From assembly GCA_035221665.1 (NCBI GenBank), contig CM069145.1:28582001-28646000 (forward strand): DNA of 64,000 nucleotides, in the 5' to 3' direction. This document shows, in pieces, positions 17,501-35,500 of the stretch. The notes below the pieces were generated by a model that searched no databases, had not been told where the DNA came from, and saw only the letters and a list, made by a program, of their open reading frames with translations. Numbering within the stretch: the stretch's first letter is position 1; the number at the start of each line of letters is the position of its first letter. Made by a program: the position numbers and the translations under genes. Source of the stretch: Okamejei kenojei. Lineage: Eukaryota.

Positions 17501-20500
17501 CACATAATACATTTATTAGTGTGCTTGCCTTAAAAGACGTCTCAATAGCAAAAAACAAAAATTGAAATGTAGACAAGAAAACAAGATTAAAAAATAAATG
17601 TAAGCACACTGCCCTGGGAAGCGAAAGTGTAGCCCATCCTGGTTCTTAACCACATTCTGTACAATGAGTTTCGGGATTAGTGTGAAAGAATGGAATAAAT
17701 ATTTCTCCTTTTCTTCTCCCCAAAATAATTTATTGATACTGAAAACAAAACTAAACTAGTTTAACCTGCAGTATGGGTAACTGAGAACACTACCCTAGTG
17801 TGCAATGTTCAATACAAAGACTCAAGACCATAATGGGTTTAGAGTGTTGAAATCAATGGTTCATTATGCAGTGATACAGTGCACACATTTTCTCTGAACC
17901 CTTTCAAGCTATTGGTTTTGTAAATAGTCAAAAATCGAATATTTGAAATATTCTTTTGGTGGGCTGTTATTTATAAATTGTATCCAGAAAGCATTACCTT
18001 TACTGGGATCTGACAAGGTCAAAGATACTCCTTGTAGAATCTACAAACATCAATCAATCATTGTGTTTCATTGAGGACTATATTTTATATCATATAACTT
18101 AGGGGACAAAGGCAGAAGAATTTTGACACTATGTCTAAAGTGTCAAAACAGCAAAGCCATACAGACAGGACTCTTCATGTTTTAATTTTTACTGTCCGAA
18201 TCATAAAATGGACTATACATTTTATACACATCAAGAAGTCTACACTTAAAAAAAAGAGTATGGGGTCACAGGGAGGTACTAAAATCTACAGACAAATTAA
18301 CAGGAAACTAAAAAACATTAAAAATTATTTGGTCTCTTCATATTAGTTCCTAGATTTTAATATATGATTGCTAAGAATTAGAAATGAATAATTTCTGCAA
18401 ACCCCTCTCCTATAATGAACCATTAGTGAGATTTAAAAAAAAGTGAAATCTTAAACTGTGCTGCAGCACATTGAAATATGAACAATGAATCAAGTAATTT
18501 TATTGCTCTTTTTCTTTAGCAGTGAAACTTGTGGTGGACAAAGAAACATAGAAAACAGGTGCAGGAGAAGGCCATTCGGCCCTTCGAGCCAGCACCGCCA
18601 TTCATTGTGATCATGGCTCATCATCCACAAACAGTAAACCGTGCCTGCCTTCTCCCCATATCCCTTGATTCCGCTAGCCCCTAGAGCTCCATCTAACTCT
18701 CTTTTCAATTCATCCAGTGAATTGGCCTCCACTGCCTTCTATGGCAGAGAATTCCACAAATTCACAACTCTGGGTGAAAACGTTTTTTCTCATCTCAGAT
18801 TTAAATGGCTTCCCCTTTATTCCTAGACTGTGCCCCCTGGTTCTGGACTCCCCCACATTTGGAACATTTTTCCTGCATCTGGCTTGTCCAGTCCTTTTAT
18901 AATTTTATATGTTTCTATAAAATCCCCTCTCATTTTTCCAAATTCCAGTGAATACAAGCCCAATCTTTCCAATCTTTCCTCTTATGACAGTCCCGCCATC
19001 CCGGGGATTAACCTCGCGAACCTACGCTGCACTCCCTCAATAACAAGGATGTCTTACGTCAAATTACGAGACCAAAACTGCACACAATTTTCCAAATGTG
19101 GTCACACCAGGGCCCTGTACAACTGCAGAAGGACCTCTTTACTCCTATACTCACATCCTCTCGTTATGAAGGCCAACATGCCATTAGCTTTCTTCCCAGC
19201 CTGCTGTACCTGCATGTTTACCTTCAGTGACTGGTACACAAGGACACCCAGGTCTCGTTGCACTTCCTTTTTTCCTAATCTGACATTGAGATAATAATCT
19301 GCCTCCTTGTTCTTGCTGCCAAAGTGGATAACCTCACATTTATCTACATTATACTGCATCTGCCATGTCAGCCTGTCCAAGTCACCCTGCAACCTCCTAG
19401 CACCGTCGCAGTTCACACTGCCACCCTTCTAATGCAATGCTACTTATAAATATGTTTAATTAAACTATAACGTGTCAAAGGGAATTGAAAATGATATGGT
19501 TTTCTACAGCAATGTAGCTGCAATTAGAGTCAATTATCCCCAAAACTGATTTAAATCACTTCTCCAATTATTTTAGCAATTACAGACTCGGGTGGACTTG
19601 TTGCAGATAGCATAATTCTCATTGCCGAGTGAATGAATTTATGATAATGTTTCTATAATTTAAATAATTTGCATGGATAGTGAAGTGTGGCAGCAGCGAT
19701 GCATTAAATGGAAAATCGAAGTGAAAGTAAAATGCAAAGAGTGGAACCATTGCTTAAAATAAAGCGCAGGACTAAGTCAACAAGTCAGGGTGCATCTCTC
19801 GAAGATATGGACAGTGGATGTTTCATGTTGGACATTTCTACAGACTAATTGGAAGAGGGGGGAGAAAGCTGGAAAAGAAGTGGGGGCAGGACAAAAACAG
19901 GCGAGTGACAGGTGGATACAGGTGAGAGGGGTTTTGATTGGCGGATTGGTAAAGGAACCCAGGAGGGCATGTTTTTGCAAATCATTATAGATCCATTTGC
20001 TCTGAGTGCTACATACTGATTAAAGTTGGTGAATGCTATCAGCTAAAATCAAACAACAAACACTAAACCTCTTTAAAACGGGTTGCAATGATAAGCAAGA
20101 TCAATGTTAATGATTCCAGTCTTGGACATCGGAGAGGATCCAGTTACATCAACAATGGAAAATCCTCCAGTTAGCTGGACATTTTGAATAACAGAGAATT
20201 GCACTCTGTAAGTTTTTGCACTTTGTTCCCTGGAAACACTGACATTGGGAACAATATTCTACGGAGTGGGAAGCAAAAATCATTATGAGTTCCAAGTTTT
20301 GGCAAAATATAAATTGCTGAAGGAGCCCAGCAGGTCAGAGGGCATCTGGGGACAGAATGGATGGACATTTTGGGTCAGACAGATTGGAGTTGGGGGGGGG
20401 GGGGGGGGGGGGGGGGGGAGGGGGGGAGCGAGAAAAGGGAGATGGGGTGGAACTAAGCCTAGCAAGTGATAGGTGCATATTGGTGATTGGGGTTTGGTTG

Positions 20501-23500
20501 GCAGATGGGTGAAGTAAGTGACAGAGACTGGAGGTGATAAGGATGTCAGATAGAGAGAGGAGAGAAGGAGTGAAATGTAAAGCTGGATTGAGGGGGAGGG
20601 GGGGGGGGTGAGGGTGGTAGATCTTAAGTGATAGGAGCAGAATTAGGCCATTTTGTCCATCAGGTCTACTCTACCATTCAATCACAGCTGATCTATCTCT
20701 CCCTCTTAACCCCATTTTCCTGCATTCTCCCCATAACCTCTGACACCTGTACTAATTAAGATGGTGGGCGAAATGTGAACACACTGGGGTCGGGCAACCT
20801 GGGAAAATAAAGGGCAGCAGGTTATCATTTGAAGTTGGAGAATTGAATGTTCTTGCCGTTGGGTTTTAGTTTAGTTTAGTTTTAATTTAGAGAAACAACA
20901 CGGAAACAGGCCCTTCAGCCCATCGAGTCCACGCTGACCAGCGATCCCCGCACATTAACACTATCCTACACACACTAGGGACAATTTAGAATTATACCAA
21001 GCTAATTAACCTACAAACCTGTACGTCTTTGGAGTGTGGGAGAAAACCGTAGCTCCTGGGGGAAACCCACACAGTCTCAGGGAGAATGTACACACTCCGC
21101 ACAGACAAGCACCTCTAGTCAGGATCGAACCCGAGTCTCTGACGCTGTAATGCAGCAACTTTAGCACTTCATCACTGTGCCGCCAGGTTGTAAACTACAA
21201 GTGCTGTTCCTCTAGTTTGTTTGTGGCCTCACACTGCCAATATGGATAGAAAGCATGAAATGAGAAGGGGCATTAGGGTGGAAGATTGCAACCTTCACGT
21301 GGTCCGCCCTGTTTCGACTAATGCAATCAACTCGACGTGCACAAACGGAAGATCAAATAGAACAAGTTGTCCAACAATTTTAGGCTGTGCACGCCACATG
21401 AAAGAAGAGAAGGGACATTAAGTGGTTAGCAATGGGGACATCCAGCAGGCCTGAGATCTGGCTTTACAATTTAAGTACTGGGTTGTTCAACATAACGGAT
21501 TTGTTTAAATGCTGTCAGTCACTGTGGAATTCGAGTGGGCTGGCCAGAGGTGCATAGTTACACTGAGGAGGAACAATTGCTTCCCTTGGTCTTCTTGGCA
21601 AACAGTGATGAAAGGGCTTTGGGATGGTCATACGGGAGTTAACAGTGGTGGATGGGGGAAAGAGGATGAAGTCTGGAACTGGAGGCTGTGCTGATCCAGG
21701 ACTCAAAGACGTTTTGACTAAATTGTAGGACTGCATCTTGCTTTTCACCAACTGCTGACCTGTTTCAGCATGTCAGGAAAGATTTTCTCTTGAGATCGTG
21801 GGAAAAATGCCTTTAGGGTCTGATTAAACTCTAATCAGATCGTGTAAATTTGTGAGGAAACTGAAGCTAAATGTCTCACCTGTTGACAGAACCATGCATG
21901 TTTGCAATTCAGACAGTGACAAAAGGTTATGTTCAGGCAGGTTTAGTAAATTGCTCATCTATATTTCAACCAAAAGTAAAGATTTCCGGATAAAACACAC
22001 CCTTGGTTTTTTTTTTTTGGACTGCATTACACATAGAAACATAGAAAAGTAGGTTCAGGAGTAGGCCATCGGCCCTTTGATCATGGCTGCTCATCTAAAA
22101 TCAGTACCCAAATCCTGATTTTTCCCCATATCCCTTGATTCCTTTAGTTCTAAGAGCTAGATCTAACTTCCAGTGAATTGGCCTCCACTGCCTTCTGTGG
22201 CAGAGAATTCCACAGATTCACAACTTTCTGGGTGAAGAAGTTTTTCCTCATCTCATTCCTAAACGGCCTACCCCTTATTCTTAAACTGTGACCCCTGGTT
22301 CTGGACTCCCCCAACATCAGAAACATTTTTCCTGCATCTAGCCTATCCAACCCTTTAAAAATGTTATACGTTTCTATAAGATAACCTCTCATCCTTCTAA
22401 ATTCCAGTTAAAAACAAGCCCAGTCAACCCATTCTTTCATCATATGTCAGTCCTGCCATCCTGGGAATTAACCTGGTGAACCTATGCTGCACACCCTCAC
22501 TAGCAAGAATGTCCTTTCTCAAATTAGGAGAACAAAATTGCACACAATACTCCAGGTGCGGTCTCATCGGGGCCCTGTACAACTGCAGTAAGACCTCCTT
22601 GCACCCAAACTCAAATCCACTCGCAATGATGGCTAACATGCCATTAGCTTTCTTCACTATCTGCTGTACCTGCATGCTTACTTTCAGTGACTAATGTACA
22701 AGGACACCCAGGTCTCGTGGCACCTCCCCTTTTCCTAATCTGACATCATTCAGATAATAATCTGCCTTCCTGTTCTTGCCACCAAAGTGGATATCATCAC
22801 CTTTATCCACATTATATTGCATCTGCCATGCATCTGCCCACTCACCCAACCTATCCAAGTCACCCTGCAGCCTCATAGCATCCTCATCGCAGCTCACACA
22901 GCCACACAGCTTTGTGTCATCCGCAGACTTGGAGATGTCACATTTAATTCCCTCTTCTAAATTGTTAATATATATTGTAAATCTGGGGTCCCAGCACCAA
23001 GCCTTGCGGCATCCCACTAGTCACTTCCTGCCATTCTGAAATGAACACGTTAATTCCTACTCTTTGCTTCCTGTCTGCCAACCAGTTCTCCATCCATGTC
23101 AATACCCTACCCCCAACACCATGTGCTCCAATTTTGTACACTAATCTCTTGTGTGGGATCTTGTCAAAGCCTTTTTGAAAGTCCAGATACACCACATCCA
23201 CTGGCTCTTCCTTACCCATTCTGCTTGTTACATTCTCAAAAAATTCCAGAAGATCAGTCAAGCATGATTTCCCCTTTATAAATCCATGCTAACTTTGACC
23301 GATCCTGTCACTGCTTTCCAAATGCATTGCTATAACATCTTTAACAATCGACTCAAGCATCTTCCACACTGATGTAAGGCTAACTGGTCTATAATTGACC
23401 GTTTTCTCTCTCCCTCCTTTTTTAAAAAGTGGAGTTACATTGGCTACCCTCCAATCCACAGGAACTGATCCGGAGTCAAGAGAACATTGGAAAATGATCA

Positions 23501-26500
23501 CCACTGCATCCACAATTTTTATAGGGCCACCTCCTTGAGTACTCTGGGATGCAGACCATCGGGCCCTGGGGATTTATCTGCCTTCAGTCCCAACAGTTGA
23601 CCTAACATCATTTCCTGTCTCTGATTATAAGGACCTACATTTGTCTTCACTAATCTTTTCCTTTTTACATCTCTAAAGAAGCTTTTAGAGACAGTGAAGC
23701 TTTTTAGAGTCCAGGGCATTTAACGATAAATTATACAAGGATCAGGAGCTCCAGCCTGAAATGAATGAATGTGGTCTATGCCCACATGCCAAAAAAGCTC
23801 CAAATAATTAAACATCACAAAATCTTACATAATTGTGATCTGTGTAAATAAATAACATAAACTTAAGCTTCCAACATGGAGAATACTGGAAAACATTTCA
23901 GCAGGTCATAAATATGGACACAACACCACTAAAAATAAAAGACACAAAGTGCTGGAGTAACTCAGCGGGTCAGGCAACATCACTGGAGAATATGGATAGG
24001 TTCTTAAAGAAGGGTCCCGACTTGAAATGTCACCTATTCATATTCGCCAAAGATGCTGCCTGACCTGCTGTGTTATACCAGAACTTTGTACCATTGTGTG
24101 TAAACCAGCATCTGCAGTTCCTTGTATCCACCACCAAAAATAAGATGTGTGAATTTGAAAAATATAGTTGCATTTACATAGTGCCTTTGACACACCTATT
24201 GGAATTTCTTGAAGCGCTTTAGAGATGAAGTTGCCAAGTGCACCTGCCAGCCTCTATAAATAGTAACTGTCGACATGAAGGATAATTGCTTTCCCTCAAA
24301 ATAGGGCATGGGATCTTTTTAAAAAAAATACCTCAGATGACAGGTTGGGCTTAATCTGTCATCTGATACTGTTAAAAGTGAGCCACATAACTCACATATA
24401 AACATCTTCCATCACCATACAGTCTGCCATGATGCTACTCTTAAAATGAAACCAGTACACAGCTGGAAAATAGAGTATCACTCAAACTGCTAAAAAAAAA
24501 TCTCATCATGACCAGTTATGTGAAATTAATTGACCATTATTATGACTGCTTTTGGGATATGGTTCTGTAAGATGAATTGCCCAGCTGTTGTGAGGGTTGT
24601 GCGATTGGATTTCTTCACTTACCAGGCCTGTGAAAGTGCTGTGGACTCCGGGCAACAGTGGGTGTGTAGCAGTGACGGCTGTAGACAGGGGAGCTGATGG
24701 AACCCTGGCTGGAGGACCTCTGCACCATTCGATCACGAGCGTCGTGGGATCCCTGAAATATATTTCCACGTGTTACATCCTCAGCTCAGACAACGAAGAG
24801 AGCCTTACCGTATTATGTTTTAAAGTGAGCCATCTCAGTGAGAAAGCTGAGAAATAATTTGACTGTTGAGTGAACATACAATGAGACCAGAATGGTACAA
24901 ATGTATCAATAATTAAAGCTGAAAGCATCACAGCTGAGCCCATCTTAAGGGCCTGTCCCACTTTCAAGACCTAATTCATGACCTCTGCCAAGTTTGCCCT
25001 TGACTAATACTCGCAGCATGGTCTTCACAAGGTCGTAAGAGGTCGTAGGTACTTGTGGCATCAAGTAGGTCGGGGCGTTTTTCTAGCCTGATGAAAAATG
25101 TCCACGAGCAAAAAAAGGTAGTGAATTAGGTCGTGAAAGTGGGACAGGCCCTTAAAGGGATCATCCAACTTTAATGACAGAGTCTTAGAATCATATCACT
25201 CTATGTTGTTAAAGTTAATGATTGACAGTAAAGCATTAATCAACTACACAATATACTCTACTCTATAAACTAGACTGATTCTCTATAAAGTAGGAAGAGC
25301 CTCAATTTTTAATTAACAGCTTCTCTTGAAAAATAGACTAATAAAATCATTCCTCTTTTTAATATCATCTGTTACTGGAAGATTTAAAATATGCAGTAAA
25401 TAATTTATTCTGAAGGTCATTGGCAGTACAATAAAATATTAAATATCTGGTGTTCATTGTAGACTGAGAATATGGGGATGATAAAAAAAATTGTAAATGC
25501 AGACTCAAAGGTCTTTTTCTATGCTTTCTGATTGCAGGACTGAATAACAGGATGTGGATAATGTCAAATAGCGGTGTTTTCTAGATTGCACCCTCTAAAC
25601 TACTCTGACCTTTCAGTCCATCATATTTTGTTCAGTATGAGCTAAAGGATATTAAGAGTGTCTGCAAACCTATATCCCAATGTGGTTGCACAGTGTATTT
25701 ACACTATGTTATTTTCAGTCTAAATTTAAGCTCTAATCATTTTTTAGTAATTGTTGGTTTTGTTAACATGGGCATTAATTTAAACAAAAATTAAATGCTC
25801 AGATTATGTGCAAGAGGTAAAAAAAAAGACAAACTTTACAATCCTGTGGTTTTGTTAATATGTGCATTGAATTTAAATATTTTTAAAAAAAAAGTTCAAT
25901 TGATAAGTGCAACGGGTAAAAAGAAATAAGCAAACTTTACAATCCTGTGGAAAGTGGATTATTATTTATCAGTTCTAATATCTATCCAACTTTGGCCACT
26001 TCCTTTGTCAAACCCCTTTGATCTTGACACTCTTTTGGAAACTTCAGGCTTGTGTTGTATTTGAAATGTGCAACAAATTGCAATTATATTTTTGGGAGGG
26101 GGCGATGGAAAGGGTGTCAAGCAAATTAGTTTCAGCTCATCACTCAACTGTTTTACCACAGGATCCTGGCCTTGTTGCCAGCTGAGATTCAAATGCCTAA
26201 CATGGTAGACAACATTGCTTAATTAGTCCTTCCAGCTGTGCCTCATGGAGGTCCTCTGATGAAACAAAGAACAGCAGAGCGATGCTGCAGTAAATGTAGT
26301 TGGGTATTTATGTTTGATTAAGCCTCCAGTCAGATCCGTTTGCAGCATTTTAAGTCGACTGACAATCACATTGAACAAAACTGCTTTAAGATGGTGCTGA
26401 AAGTACACTTTTGACCTCAGTGGAAATGTTGTGCTTCCATGTCAGAATGCTTGATTAAACTTGGCTTGGTTAAGACTGTATAAGCAGCAGCTTAACAAGC

Positions 26501-29500: not shown

Positions 29501-32500
29501 TGTAATATCATTGAAGAAACCAAGTTGGAACAAGGTCCAAAGAACTGTGGCAGAGGCCTGAAATAATACATTTGTGAAGCAGGTTCAAATCCTACACAGC
29601 TGATGAATCCCACACTGATGAATTTAAGTTTGGATACTGAAATAAACATAGAATCCTAGCTTCAACAACGGTGTCCATAAAATTACTAGATGGCCATCAA
29701 ATGCGCAGATGGTTCATTTGTTATCCTCACCAGAACATGCGATTCTAGATTCAACCCACCGTGATGTGGTTGAATCCTAACGGGGTTTTAAAATGAATCC
29801 TAACTGGGTTTCAAAGATAGGCCAGTAATGCTGTCTTTGTCAGCCACATCAATGAATGAACAAAAGAGGCAAGGCATTTTCCACATAAAGTGATGTGTAC
29901 TTTCACAATTATGGATTTGAATATAAAAATAGTCCAGATAATTTCAACATGAAAGCACAGTTCCAAAATAATTTGATTCTGATCAAGCAATCACTCCATC
30001 ACAGATCTACACTCATATCTGATCAATTATGCCCTTTTTGTGGCAAATCTCAAATTTGTTTTGGTGGTTTAGAATGTAGTAGCATTGGATTGCCACGTTA
30101 ACTGAAGCACCAATGCAGTATTCCATATACTTTAATTGCACTCTAACCAAAATGAGGCATAACATATGAATGCTCATTGGCAACTTGCCAGGATTTAAAA
30201 ACAAACATTAATTACTTCAAGAGTTTCACAATATAAAATGACCTTTGCCACATCATACAAGAGGGAAGGTGCCAGTAAATTAGATGACAGGGAACTATGC
30301 TTTCAGTCTAAAAAAGGATCCCAACCCTCAGCCCACAATTATCTGCATTTCGCCTCAATCCCCTCCAAGCATATGGTGCATTAAGAATCTAATTCATTGA
30401 TCCAATGTTGCAAGCATCATCCCACGCTGCAATACTGAGCTACCTAAAGTTCACTGGTTGAATCATAATTGAGTTAGATGATCTCATTCTAGCAGTAGTG
30501 TTACAGTTGGTTTTAGCTCAAGTGAGACAAAATAAAGAGCAGCCAACGTTCCCAATTCTGAATGCAATTTAATACATCTTGCTGCAGCTGGACATTTGAT
30601 GTTGAACAACACTGAGACGAAACTGACTAGAAGGGCCCCTCAGTTGTCTAATCTGCCAATTATTAGTGTTTCAGCTCCCATATGGATAATGTTGAGGCAC
30701 AAAAGGGAAACTGCTGATCATGAAGCTACGTAGTTGCAGGATGACTGCAGCACACTCTCTGCACCTTCTTATTTTCTCATGAACTCTGCCACCTGACTAC
30801 ACAATTACTCAGTGATACTGTGCTGTGTATTTTGATGAATGAAGTTACGTCAAAAGGGTGTGCTTTGTCTTTAGTAATAAGAATTTGAACAGTGCCATTG
30901 TCATTTCTACTGGAGAGCAATGATCAAATGGAGGGCTGTCTTAATCTCCTTTCTATTTTAATCTCGGGCTCCAGTAGATTGTTGAGCCATTTGGATTTCC
31001 AGTTGAATTAAAGTACAGTTTCTGCACCAGGAGCTTCCTCTATTTGGAGTCAATCCTTGCTGCTGCTAAGACCACAGAATTTGTGCTGTACATTTGGTTC
31101 TGTGATCTCACCTCCTGTCATGTCATCATTATCCTACTATTTATGTAAACATGTGCTTATCTTACCAAGTTATTACTGGAGTGAACCTGGTGTGGCCTTT
31201 GCAGATTCCCCATCTCCATCATGTCATAGAAACATAGAAAATAGGTGCAGGAGTAGGCCATTCGGCCCTTCGAGCCTGCACCGCCATTCAATATGATCAT
31301 GGCTGATCATCCAACTCAGTATCCTGTACCTGCCTTCTCTCCATACCCCCTGATCCCTTTAGCCACAAGGGCCACATCTAACTCCCTCTTAAATATAGCC
31401 AATGAACTGGCCTCAACTACCTTCTGTGGCAGAGAATTCCACAGATTCACCACTCTCTGTGTGAAAAATGATTTTCTCATCTCGGTCCTAAAAGACTGGA
31501 CTTCCCCAACATAGGGAACAATCTTCCTGCATCTAGCCTGTCCAATCCCTTAAGGATTTTGTAAGTCTCTATAAGATCCCCCCTCAATCTTCTAAATTCC
31601 AGCCAGTACAAGCCGAGTCTATCCAGTCTTTCTTCATATGGAAGTCCTGCCATCCCAGGAATCAGTCTGGTGAAACTTCTCTGTACTCCCTCTATGGCAG
31701 GAATGTCTTTCCTTAAATTAGGAGACCAAAACTGATGCAATCTCCATCATCTCCTCTACAGATATGTCGTTGTGGAATATGCATTCAGTCAATGCATTCC
31801 AATTCATATACCAACACCTACAGTTCCTTTCTGCACATTTTGTCTGCTTCACTGCAAAATCTCCTCAAGATATGCCTACATTGATGGTTCTCCTCCTCTC
31901 TCCGACAGTAGTTCTGTGAGACCCTCTCTGCAACTTCCAGTTCCCTCCCCTATGCTTTCAGTCTGACGAAGGATCCCAACCAGAAACGTCATCCATTGAT
32001 GCTGAGTTACTCAATCTTTGGTTTATACCAGCACCTACAGTTCCTTTTTACCCATTTCATAACAACTTGTCCGCAAGCACTTCACCACTTCACATACTTA
32101 TCGGAACAAAACAATCCAAGTTTGAGGAATTTCTCAGTTGCAGGAGACCCTTGCTTTTTATCATTTATACCAGTAACTAACGTGGTAAATTAAGACAGAG
32201 AAATTATTTTTTTTCCTTTCCGAAAGAAGGATAACCAATGTTCAGATTCTATTATGAAACCAATTCTAGTCGTGGTCCTTCTGTGAAGTGTTGCAGACCC
32301 ATGGTTTCATGACCATATGAAATCGTACTTCATGGAAGTAGGCCAATTGTTCCATTGTGCTGTAGAGTTCTTAATTTATTTTACTAAGCTGCTCTTTCCT
32401 CTATACCCTACGATTTATTTCCTCTTTCAGGTAATTAACCCCATCAATGTTTTAAGCTACTCAGAAATTTGCTTTTAATATCCGCTCAGTCAATGCACTC

Positions 32501-35500
32501 CACATCATCATAAGTCTTGGGTTGCATCAACGTTTCCTCATCTCCTCTACAGATATTTCTTTTGACACTCCTCTTAAAACTGAACACCTGCCAATGGAGG
32601 GAGGCTTGCTTCTTAGAGAGAATTGTTCAACCTCCAGATACAGTCGCAACATCTCACTTACGCTATAATGCTGCCACAGAGCTCAGTACTGCAAACACTA
32701 GTAGGGTTCAACCATAAATTAGGTAATACCTGTCACATGGCAAAACCAAATCATGGCCGGCCTGACCAAAAATAACGGTATGTACCCGGACCTCACAATT
32801 GGCAGATAGCAAGAGCTCCCTTTGGTGTTGTTATTTCGGGGCCAAATAACAATGTTGTCTGAGGAAGGCTGTGGCCAAGCATAAGTAGAGTAGATTTACA
32901 ATCCTTTCCCGGACAACTAGGCTCTGCATTTCTACTTTCAAATCAATTATCGTTTTGAGAGAAATAGTAAGCAGAGGTAATCTGCACAATGCACTTGTGG
33001 CACCTTCAAAATTGTAGTCTCCCCATCCACAAAGTTTATAAATTACAATATATCAAAGCTGCTGTGTTTTTTTTGTAGTGTGTATTTCACACAATGTAAG
33101 CTCATAGCTCATAGCAAATGTAGTTAAAATCGTTTCTTTGAAACATTTGCCCACATTCCTCACTGATGACACTGAAAGGATTTTGGTTACTTTAACTTGG
33201 CTTTTCTCCTTTTCACATACAAAAGAATTGCCATGAACCACCAGACTGTGACAGTTATTGACAGCAATCCTAGGAATGATCACCATCTCAAGCATCCAAG
33301 TACAATAGATGTTATTTTGGCCACAAGTTTTAGAGGACACACCATGACTACACAGCTCATGGTACATGCATTTTCACAGTAAAAATGTTATAACTTCTTT
33401 CGATGTTATGCTGATTTTCTAAATGTTGCATTATTGTGGACTATTGAAGCAAATGATTATAATATCTAATTGTATGTTACATAACCAAACCTAAATGATT
33501 TGATCATTTTAGAAATGATAAGAAGCATCCGATCAAGGGTGGAATTTTAATTTGGCAAACATTTCTTTCAATTGGAATGTGAGTGTTCCTCACTTCTACA
33601 AAATAAAGGTTAATTCAAGCTCAATTTCTTAATGCTCAGTTTGTGTTCCACCAGAACTGCTTCCCTTCCAAATGTCAAGCACCGATACTGGTTTGGGTTT
33701 CCGTCTTGAGTTAATAGGATCTCCAAACACAAAACCTCTTTGGATTTTCTACAAACTTCATTGAGAGGATTGGGACAAACAATCTGTCCACTGGCTGTTA
33801 CAAGTGGATCAAAAATGAAAGTTTAACCCAGGATATCTAGAGAAACAATGACAAGACAATGGATGGGTAAGATTCATGTACCTCTCCCATACTATGACGC
33901 TCATGTCTATCTTCAATTGTAGCACCAAAATATGGCTCATATGTGATCAGGTCAGGACGTTCAATATCATAAATGGCCTTAACTTTGGGGATCGCAGCCA
34001 GATCCTTATAGTCAAGAATCTCATTGTCCACTTTTGCCTGGGAAAAGAAAACATTGAAGAATATTTCAGAGCTTAATCAATCTGATTTAATCGAATTTCT
34101 TAATCTCAAGCGAAATTACAAGATTACAATATTATGTCTAAAGAAAAATAAATTAAGACCAGTATTTCAAATGGGGCGGCATGATGGCACAGCGGTAGAG
34201 TTGCTGCCTCACCGCGCCTGGGACCCGGCTTTGATCCTGACTATGAGTGTTGTCTGTGCAAAATTGTACGTTATCCTCATGACTGTGTGGGTTTTCCCAG
34301 GGAGCATCAGTTTCATCCCACTTTCCAAAGATGTACAAGTCTGTAGGTTAATTGGCTTCAGTAAACATTGTAAATTGTCCCTCGTGTTTGGGATAGTGCT
34401 CGTGTACTGGGCTTGTTGGTCGGCATGGTCTCGGTGGGCCGAAGGGCCTGTTTCCACGCTTTATCTCAAAACTAAACTAAATTAAACTAAATGGAACAAG
34501 CAACAGGGAAAACAAGGTCTTTGGTTGTGTTTTAAGATTCAAGAGTCAAGAGAGTTTTATTGTAATGTGTCCCAGATAGGACAATGATATTTTCATATAT
34601 TAGCAGCTTCAAGGCAACTGGATATATAAAGATAATTTAATATTCTTGCACACAATAAACACTGCACATCAAGGAGGATTTTGTCCCTAATTTGTTGAGT
34701 GTGTTTCACACAAAAGGCTTCAACAGATACATCCAGAATAACAAGGGTTGGGTACAAGTTTAGTTTACTTTACAGACACAGCGTGGAAACATGCCTTTAA
34801 GCTCAGAGCCCACACCGACCATCGAACACCTGTTCACACTAGTTCCATGTTATCCCACTTTTGCATCTCACTTCCCTGCATAATTTCTCCAAACCTGCAC
34901 TTCTTTGGGATGTGGGAGGAATCCGGAGCACACAGAGGAAACCCTTGTAATCACAGGGAGAATGTGCAAACTCCACACAGATAGCACTCAAGGTCAGGAA
35001 TGAACCCATGCTACAAAGTCATGCACCTTCAACCAATGCACCAAATGAAAAGATAATCCTTAAACCAAAGTCAAACTGTTAGTTGAGTTCAGACTACTAA
35101 ACGTAAAGATCACACACCAACTATCGGTGGACCCATTCCTCTCGAGGAAAGGATTGCCAGCATGGGCACTTCATCCACTCACACGTCATGAGTTTCTCAG
35201 AATTTGCACAAAATCTTTTGGCACCTTTGTAGGGTTTGCACTGTTGGAAGTGGAACGGACTGACTGCCTCGGCATGCTACCACTTATGACCATCAAAAGG
35301 TCTTTCCACCATCGCATGGAGGAGAACTTGGTCTTAGCAGCAAGTTAAATAAACCATAGTTAGTTTCTCTCGCCAGCCATTTGATTTTTTTAAATACCAA
35401 ACTAGGCTCTAGCAGCACCTGCAATATAAGGTATCTGAGGCATCTAGCATTATGAGATGCTATTGACAGCAAATGTCATGTAGAAGATTATTATTGCCTG

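Follow-up and report, generated by a model that had tools for sequence, protein, structure and literature searches.

Structure of the element

In a 64-kb stretch of Okamejei kenojei DNA (contig CM069145.1, positions 28,582,001 to 28,646,000), here called the window, a short retroposon of 131 bp was found on the plus strand at 21276–21406. Judging from alignments, it is almost certainly a fusion of the first 72 nt and the last ~40 nt of a Vingi-like long interspersed nuclear element (LINE). The 5' part (21276–21346, element nt 2–72) is 87–95% identical to five LINE copies. The 3' part (21367–21406) corresponds to the last 26–42 nt of the LINE with 82–89% identity and comprises the last codons, the stop codon at 21381–21383, the 3' untranslated region (UTR) and the start of the (GAA)n tail, of which this copy has only ~7 nt. 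The deletion junction between them (21347–21366) differs among subfamilies. Flanking target site duplications (TSDs) of 14 bp with one mismatch, as claimed in a sequence-only reading of the locus, were verified at 21262–21275 and 21407–21420. The same reading had rightly called the insert a non-autonomous retroposon, since it holds only the two LINE ends and no open reading frame (ORF). Its view of a short interspersed element (SINE) with a head of its own was not upheld; the element is a bipartite, internally deleted LINE, and the LINE already has the ribozyme without P4.

The 5' part carries a 54-nt ribozyme fold of the hepatitis delta virus (HDV) type without a P4 stem (21275–21328), with a predicted cut 5' of 21275. 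The 5' strand of P1 (21275–21281) pairs with 21304–21310 and that of P2 (21284–21290) with 21322–21328. P3 (21291–21293/21301–21303) encloses L3 (21294–21300), so that both lie at 21291–21303. J1/4 (21311–21312) is followed by a P4 remnant, a UUCG loop that U21312-A21317 may close (21311–21317 together), and J4/2 (21318–21321) contains the predicted catalytic C21318. C21296 is able to pair with G21311 as the single pair of P1.1. All helices and joining segments were found where they had been placed before, and every pair of P1 to P3 forms. The 5' boundary was only partly confirmed: the fold does begin at 21275, but the A at this position belongs to the left TSD as its final base. It replaces the G1 with which the family starts, so that the copy lacks the first G and has an A-U pair in place of the family's G1-U wobble at the base of P1.

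Minus-strand exons of the ABLIM family lie on both sides of the element, with AbLIM_anchor exons at 24597–24755, upstream of it within the host gene, and at 33870–34037, and past the window start an ABLIM-like exon was found in a noisy translated comparison (L240:7240–7296). Thus, the window copy is intronic and antisense, as proposed at the level of the ABLIM family. No ABLIM 3' exons were detected within the window by motif scan. In the CPEB3 ribozyme the change G1A lowers cleavage from 92% to 3% (PMC8233481). By analogy, the window copy likely cuts poorly because of its A at +1 and, being antisense to the host gene as well, is likely inert.

The short family and its partner LINE

The element belongs to a young and dispersed family. 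An exact 33-mer of the ribozyme occurs in 2,880 copies genome-wide, the exact 54-nt ribozyme with G1 in 1,259 and an exact 18-mer of the 3' end in at least 7,088, the last count having been made under a one-letter filter that discards about a quarter; the reversed controls gave 0 in all three cases. The total may be estimated at ~10,000–20,000 copies. With this copy number, TSDs and (GAA)n tails the family shows independent amplification. Identity among 40 scored matches was 95–100%, and the youngest short copies are 97–99% alike. The family is also present in seven organisms, according to contigs assembled from public runs, which indicate presence and are silent on expression or cleavage. Four runs with matches to the element consist of such contigs, three of them presumably from RNA.

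The family opens with four G, which gives a G1-U wobble like that at HDV-type cut sites. Thirty copies were selected solely by their 3' end. In 28 of them the alignment starts at position 1–3; one of the exceptions is truncated in L3 and the other is a LINE 3' fragment. TSDs were recognized in 23 of the 30, and in 20 of these 23 the end falls no more than 2 nt from G1; L215 and L217, which have flanks in common, are not independent cases. Clustering of the family's 5' ends at P1, on which the ribozyme interpretation had been staked, was thus observed. G stands at +1 in 27 of the 30 best copies, and 28 of 29 aligned copies retain the predicted catalytic C44 of J4/2, while the second base of J4/2 is T in 22 and G in 6 of the 29 (one gap).

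Frequent changes sit in J1/2, at the second base of J4/2, in one U-G/U-A pair and at CpG sites. The first P3 pair is also changed often (7 of 29 aligned copies). This change is present on all subfamily backgrounds, and a master lineage was therefore rejected; it reads as decay after insertion. Hence the comparison of copies within the family, which had been suggested as a covariation check, was carried out and was uninformative. Ribozyme position 29 has changed from T to C in 7 of the 29 copies close to the beginning of C1 (L208–L237, 0.5–6.6 Mb), a change that is rarer elsewhere. It often accompanies other changes from A/T to G/C, perhaps through GC-biased conversion near chromosome ends.

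An autonomous partner of the Ingi/Vingi type, as predicted, was found in L031, located by seeking copies that depart from the short form after the ribozyme. It has the same ribozyme, followed by an apurinic-like endonuclease (APE), a reverse transcriptase (RT), a C-terminal CCHC motif and the same 3' end with a (GAA)n tail, and is flanked by 9-bp TSDs. The LINE is ~3.1 kb long with a single ORF; the reading frame of L031 is now broken and carries two insertions. Its 5' region gave 45 matches. The nearest intact protein, P0001 (1,019 aa, 69% identical), contains RVT_1 and Exo_endo_phos and no RNase H; PF00075 (RNase H) was absent from the 120 homologues listed, and Pfam detected RT only on 11 short LINE fragments. 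This agrees with the Vingi layout, a compact single ORF with APE and RT and no RNase H (PMC13708176). Furthermore, the 5' end of the metagenome LINE L155 is close, in a comparison by eye, to Vingi-2_Gav as printed in the supplement of Kojima 2018, and L155 groups with the partner LINE in an RT tree, apart from a CR1-like RT as the sole outgroup. On the basis of layout and this indirect link the partner is termed Vingi-like.

Sister family 3 has an open frame of 778 aa, and its last 14 nt are identical to those of the partner LINE (L110:4400–4428, L262, L150). Because of the long open frames and this shared end, it may be the mobiliser of the youngest short copies.

Several further observations concern the history of the family. 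The older short subfamilies (L032, L034, L044–L046) keep a longer middle part from the LINE, as if deletion had been stepwise or repeated. Short copies lie within or beside LINE copies and one another in either orientation (L107:3304–3436, L091:3956–4088, L014:1718–1800, L033); in L107 a short copy of 97.7% identity is inserted in an old LINE copy. In a contig from run X19 covering 21276–21397, a direct repeat of the element's 5' 67 nt precedes a full copy.

Conservation of the ribozyme fold

Searched with a strict HDV descriptor on both strands, the window gave one match, the fold at 21275–21328. A relaxed descriptor scored the same fold at 13 and two weak minus-strand matches at 7 and 5. The nested double pseudoknot of P1, P2, P3 and P1.1 is present, and compensatory changes in all four helices were found among 12 related 5' ends. 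An HDV fold stands at the start of six Vingi-like families of this genome and of seven from metagenomes. The covariation of the fold is thus seen between families, whereas the comparison within the short one lacks power.

For metagenomes, 77 loci were reduced to 25 with a match starting at query residue 97 or earlier, and further to 22 after three with less than 120 nt upstream were dropped. The strict descriptor matched 2 of the 25 loci. The relaxed descriptor, applied upstream of the ORF, had matches at 10 of the 22 metagenome loci (in 7 families) and at 7 of 20 loci from three sister families. Among the controls, none of 42 reverse complements and one of 1,230 shuffles matched. When the 12 5' ends were aligned by MAFFT without guidance, 89.8% of cells paired and 14 of 18 pairs changed on both sides. 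P1.1 covaries from C-G to U-A. None of 500 shuffles reached the observed pairing, and slid partners gave 39–49%. The ribozyme type partly tracks the RT tree: P1 is common to L150 and family 3, which group at 0.98. Among families the primary sequence of the 5' end differs widely but its pairing persists, which suggests selection on the RNA fold.

Three further Vingi-like families (L111–L130, L257–L262) each carry at the 5' end an HDV-like ribozyme of their own that does have a P4 stem, and in family 4 P1.1 is a U-A pair.

From these results there is little doubt that the HDV fold is real, and copies with G1 are quite likely to cleave themselves 5' of G1, as predicted from the fold. Several points count against this interpretation. 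The relaxed descriptor misses 12 of the 22 metagenome loci and 13 of the 20 of the sister families. The 12 aligned rows were picked by a pairing descriptor, relaxed after the strict version, and are biased toward pairing; the descriptor controls therefore weigh more than the alignment counts. Within the short family the first P3 pair is broken in 471 copies and compensated in 4 of 100 listed. Rfam aligned exactly 21275–21328 to the HDV family RF02682, with 16.6 bits below the cut-off of 44. The search with Rfam models that had been proposed as a check was thus negative at this threshold; the HDV-family models include P4 and leave P2 unmodelled. P1.1 is limited to one pair, and by pairing with G37 the catalytic C44 might lengthen the UUCG hairpin and become trapped. 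The predicted minimum free energy structure of the whole 130 nt disrupts P1 and P3; the centroid retains P1. Cleavage is a prediction from sequence and fold throughout; the contigs of public runs cannot reveal a 5' end. The nested folding energy was unremarkable (z -0.29 and 0.47) in a model that leaves out pseudoknots.

Probable relationship to the CPEB3 ribozyme

The likeness to the mammalian CPEB3 ribozyme suggested by the sequence-only reading holds, and kinship is its best explanation. L3 is identical to that of the Rfam CPEB3 consensus, and J1/4, the 9-nt spacing from P1 to P3, the single P1.1 pair and the G1-U wobble are shared as well. In contrast, the sequences of P1, P2 and P3 differ, P4 is absent here, and CPEB3 is one conserved intronic locus. 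The CPEB3 model RF00622 (at least 35 bits) was not reached by the element, and L003 and L091 gave no match to it.

Sister families do pass this model. The 5' end of L155 (L155:2188–2271; L154, L155 and L156 are a single locus) scored 55.6 bits, above the cut-off of 35, and its CPEB3-like fold lies ~250 nt ahead of the endonuclease match. In this genome, where the best 59 of 141,138 candidates were scored, at least 42 matches were obtained, 30 of them above the cut-off and the best with 66.8 bits. The top 12 (L242–L253; also L254) appear to represent two additional families. L242, L245 and L247 continue into the start of an endonuclease and L247 and L254 into RT; behind the other family no ORF was found (L263). 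In these CPEB3-like families the differences from CPEB3 in P2 are compensatory, and the CPEB3 P4 stem occurs in the second family. The supplement of Kojima 2018 (PMC5786205) prints nt 2–74 of Repbase Vingi-2_Gav, which by eye agrees with the Rfam CPEB3 consensus at 38 of the first 40 and 14 of the last 14 positions, as far as this printed segment extends. The CPEB3 P4 stem is also present in the alligator SINE2-1_AMi as given there.

The majority of the Vingi-like ribozymes found here are unlike CPEB3 in sequence. The fold alone hence does not dictate the CPEB3 sequence, and descent is likelier than convergence. On these sequence comparisons the mammalian CPEB3 ribozyme is likely of Vingi origin. 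It has been reported as undetected outside mammals, which leaves its ancestry without an outgroup (PMC8233481). No published statement of a Vingi origin was found in a search that did not extend to Repbase, Dfam, patents and the key papers of 2011, and the available parts of PMC10919898, PMC4908430 and one bioRxiv preprint do not mention the link.

Probable pairing of the RNA ends

The 10-bp stem described in the sequence-only reading joins the LINE 5' part (arm at 21334–21343, 5' UTR in the LINE) to the LINE 3' part (arm at 21386–21395, 3' UTR in the LINE). Since it spans both parts, its arms are 3 kb apart in the LINE. The pairing itself is present in the window copy but is interrupted, with 8 bp, one mismatch and 1 bp. 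The full 10 bp form in 5 of 27 scored copies, four of them in the CGAA subfamily. Families 2, 3 and 4 each have a distinct perfect 7-bp helix in the same places (shuffle p ~0.01 each). Across ten families the cognate ends average -13.7 kcal/mol, compared with -8.1 for non-cognate ends (permutation p 1e-5), and in 6 of the 10 the cognate pair ranks first in both row and column.

The case is weakened by the remaining 4 of the 10 families, where the cognate pair is not first, by helices of 7–10 bp that sometimes arise by chance between unrelated end pairs, and by test windows that were set after three families had been looked at by eye. Overall, a function of the end-to-end helix appears fairly likely on these folding energies. 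Pairing of the RNA ends would explain why short derivatives keep both ends.

We consider it reasonably probable that a 5' HDV-like ribozyme with an end-to-end UTR helix is general in Vingi, that this family is an active version without P4 (more than 1,000 identical copies), and that mammals domesticated a Vingi 5' end as their CPEB3 ribozyme, which has its closest relatives in elements of fish and crocodilians.

Proposed mechanism and alternative explanations

The RNA of sense-oriented copies would be provided by read-through transcription by RNA polymerase II (Pol II). Cleavage 5' of G1, with C44 as the catalyst, would define the 5' end and leave it folded with a 5'-OH. A helix of 7–12 bp between 5' UTR and 3' UTR would then join the ends and aid template recognition by the LINE protein, and insertion would occur by target-primed reverse transcription. 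This sequence of events, with a Vingi protein as the enzyme, is likely on the present model. Its weak point is the enzyme: all partner-LINE copies seen are decayed (85–92% identity to L031) while the youngest short copies are 97–99% alike, and no intact copy was found among the best-scored candidates of the genome searches.

The best surviving alternative, itself unlikely, is an internal Pol II promoter in the first ~70 nt with a start at or near G1, the ribozyme trimming only occasional read-through. In Pr77 of the sister clade the same 77 nt of L1Tc and NARTc serve as promoter and as ribozyme (PMC3383444). The clustering of 5' ends at G1 suits a transcription start as well as a cut; short elements are often copied at full length, so that this clustering, used above for the ribozyme, is equally compatible with an internal promoter. 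A promoter accounts less well for a 5' end whose sequence varies between families while the pairing is kept, and for the start of all six families at the predicted cut site. The two explanations are compatible and not exclusive. With some reserve, the ribozyme is preferred as the main source of the element's 5' end.

A protective or protein-binding 5' structure that cuts slowly or not at all, the 5' ends being made otherwise, is quite improbable. The single P1.1 pair, the lack of a P4 stem, the possible G37-C44 misfold, the low Rfam score and the alternative fold in the full RNA would suit such a structure, and some trypanosomatid SIDER ribozymes are inactive in vitro (PMC4035085). Yet both the LINE and the subfamilies seen retain the G1-U wobble, L3 and the catalytic C; L3, J1/4 and the P1-to-P3 spacing are identical in the Rfam CPEB3 consensus; and HDV-like ribozymes without P4 cleave themselves in vitro elsewhere (PMC10879173).

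A conventional SINE transcribed by RNA polymerase III, with a likeness to HDV by chance, has a negligible probability: size, TSD and simple-repeat tail are SINE-like, but the head comes from the 5' end of the LINE itself, and related LINEs also start with the fold, with compensatory changes. A classical SINE with a tRNA, 7SL or 5S head is refuted by this LINE-derived head, by ARAGORN, which found no tRNA in accordance with the earlier claim, and by Rfam, which at E ≤ 10 gave for the locus the sub-threshold HDV match and unrelated weak matches only, and no small-RNA head.

Comparison with other ribozyme-headed elements

Ribozyme-headed internally deleted LINEs are known from trypanosomes and Drosophila, and bipartite Vingi derivatives have been described too; the element, headed by a fold without P4, is regarded as a variant of these systems. 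Short internally deleted elements of R2 in Drosophila are reportedly ribozyme-headed, internally deleted LINEs freed from a co-transcript. R2 is site-specific in 28S rDNA and has a protein with a restriction-like endonuclease, whereas the present family is dispersed with TSDs.

In trypanosomes, NARTc/L1Tc, RIME/ingi and the SIDERs are likewise short two-ended derivatives of Ingi-group LINEs with an HDV-like ribozyme (PMC3383444, PMC4035085). The ribozymes of NARTc and L1Tc cut immediately 5' of +1 (PMC3383444). Compared with NARTc (263 nt), the present element is about half as long, has no P4 stem, ends in a (GAA)n tail, and its cleavage is predicted only. It further differs from the trypanosome systems in residing in a vertebrate-sized genome and in having a Vingi-like partner without RNase H. 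The bipartite derivatives of Vingi-1_EE and the Vingi derivatives SINE2-1_ACar and SINE2-1_AMi (PMC5786205) retain both ends after an internal deletion, as here; the present element differs by the absence of a tRNA head. The list of ribozyme-bearing clades in PMC5786205 omits Vingi. The minimal HDV-like or theta ribozymes have the same fold without P4, but nearly 99% of them are in tailed phages (PMC10879173) and the present one is in a eukaryotic retrotransposon.

The Vingi 5' ends furnish outgroups for the CPEB3 ribozyme, by which its transposon origin becomes directly testable. A ribozyme without P4 in thousands of dispersed copies would amount to a library of natural mutants of a minimal catalyst. 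Sense-oriented copies in introns or UTRs could cut host transcripts. Vingi-1 is under development as a tool for gene insertion (PMC13708176). The natural 130-nt template shows which RNA parts are sufficient for mobilisation, with the end-to-end helix as a possible design rule.

Neighbouring repeats

Another abundant repeat, at 20900–21185 in the window, stops ~75 bp before the left TSD and recurs in many of the loci examined. Fragments which we take to be 3' ends of CR1-like LINEs lie in ABLIM introns at 18500–19200, 22100–22950 and 31200–31750. At L093:136–1580, on the minus strand, a partner-LINE copy is interrupted by zinc-knuckle, protease-like and RT-like frames, presumably of a long terminal repeat (LTR) retrotransposon.

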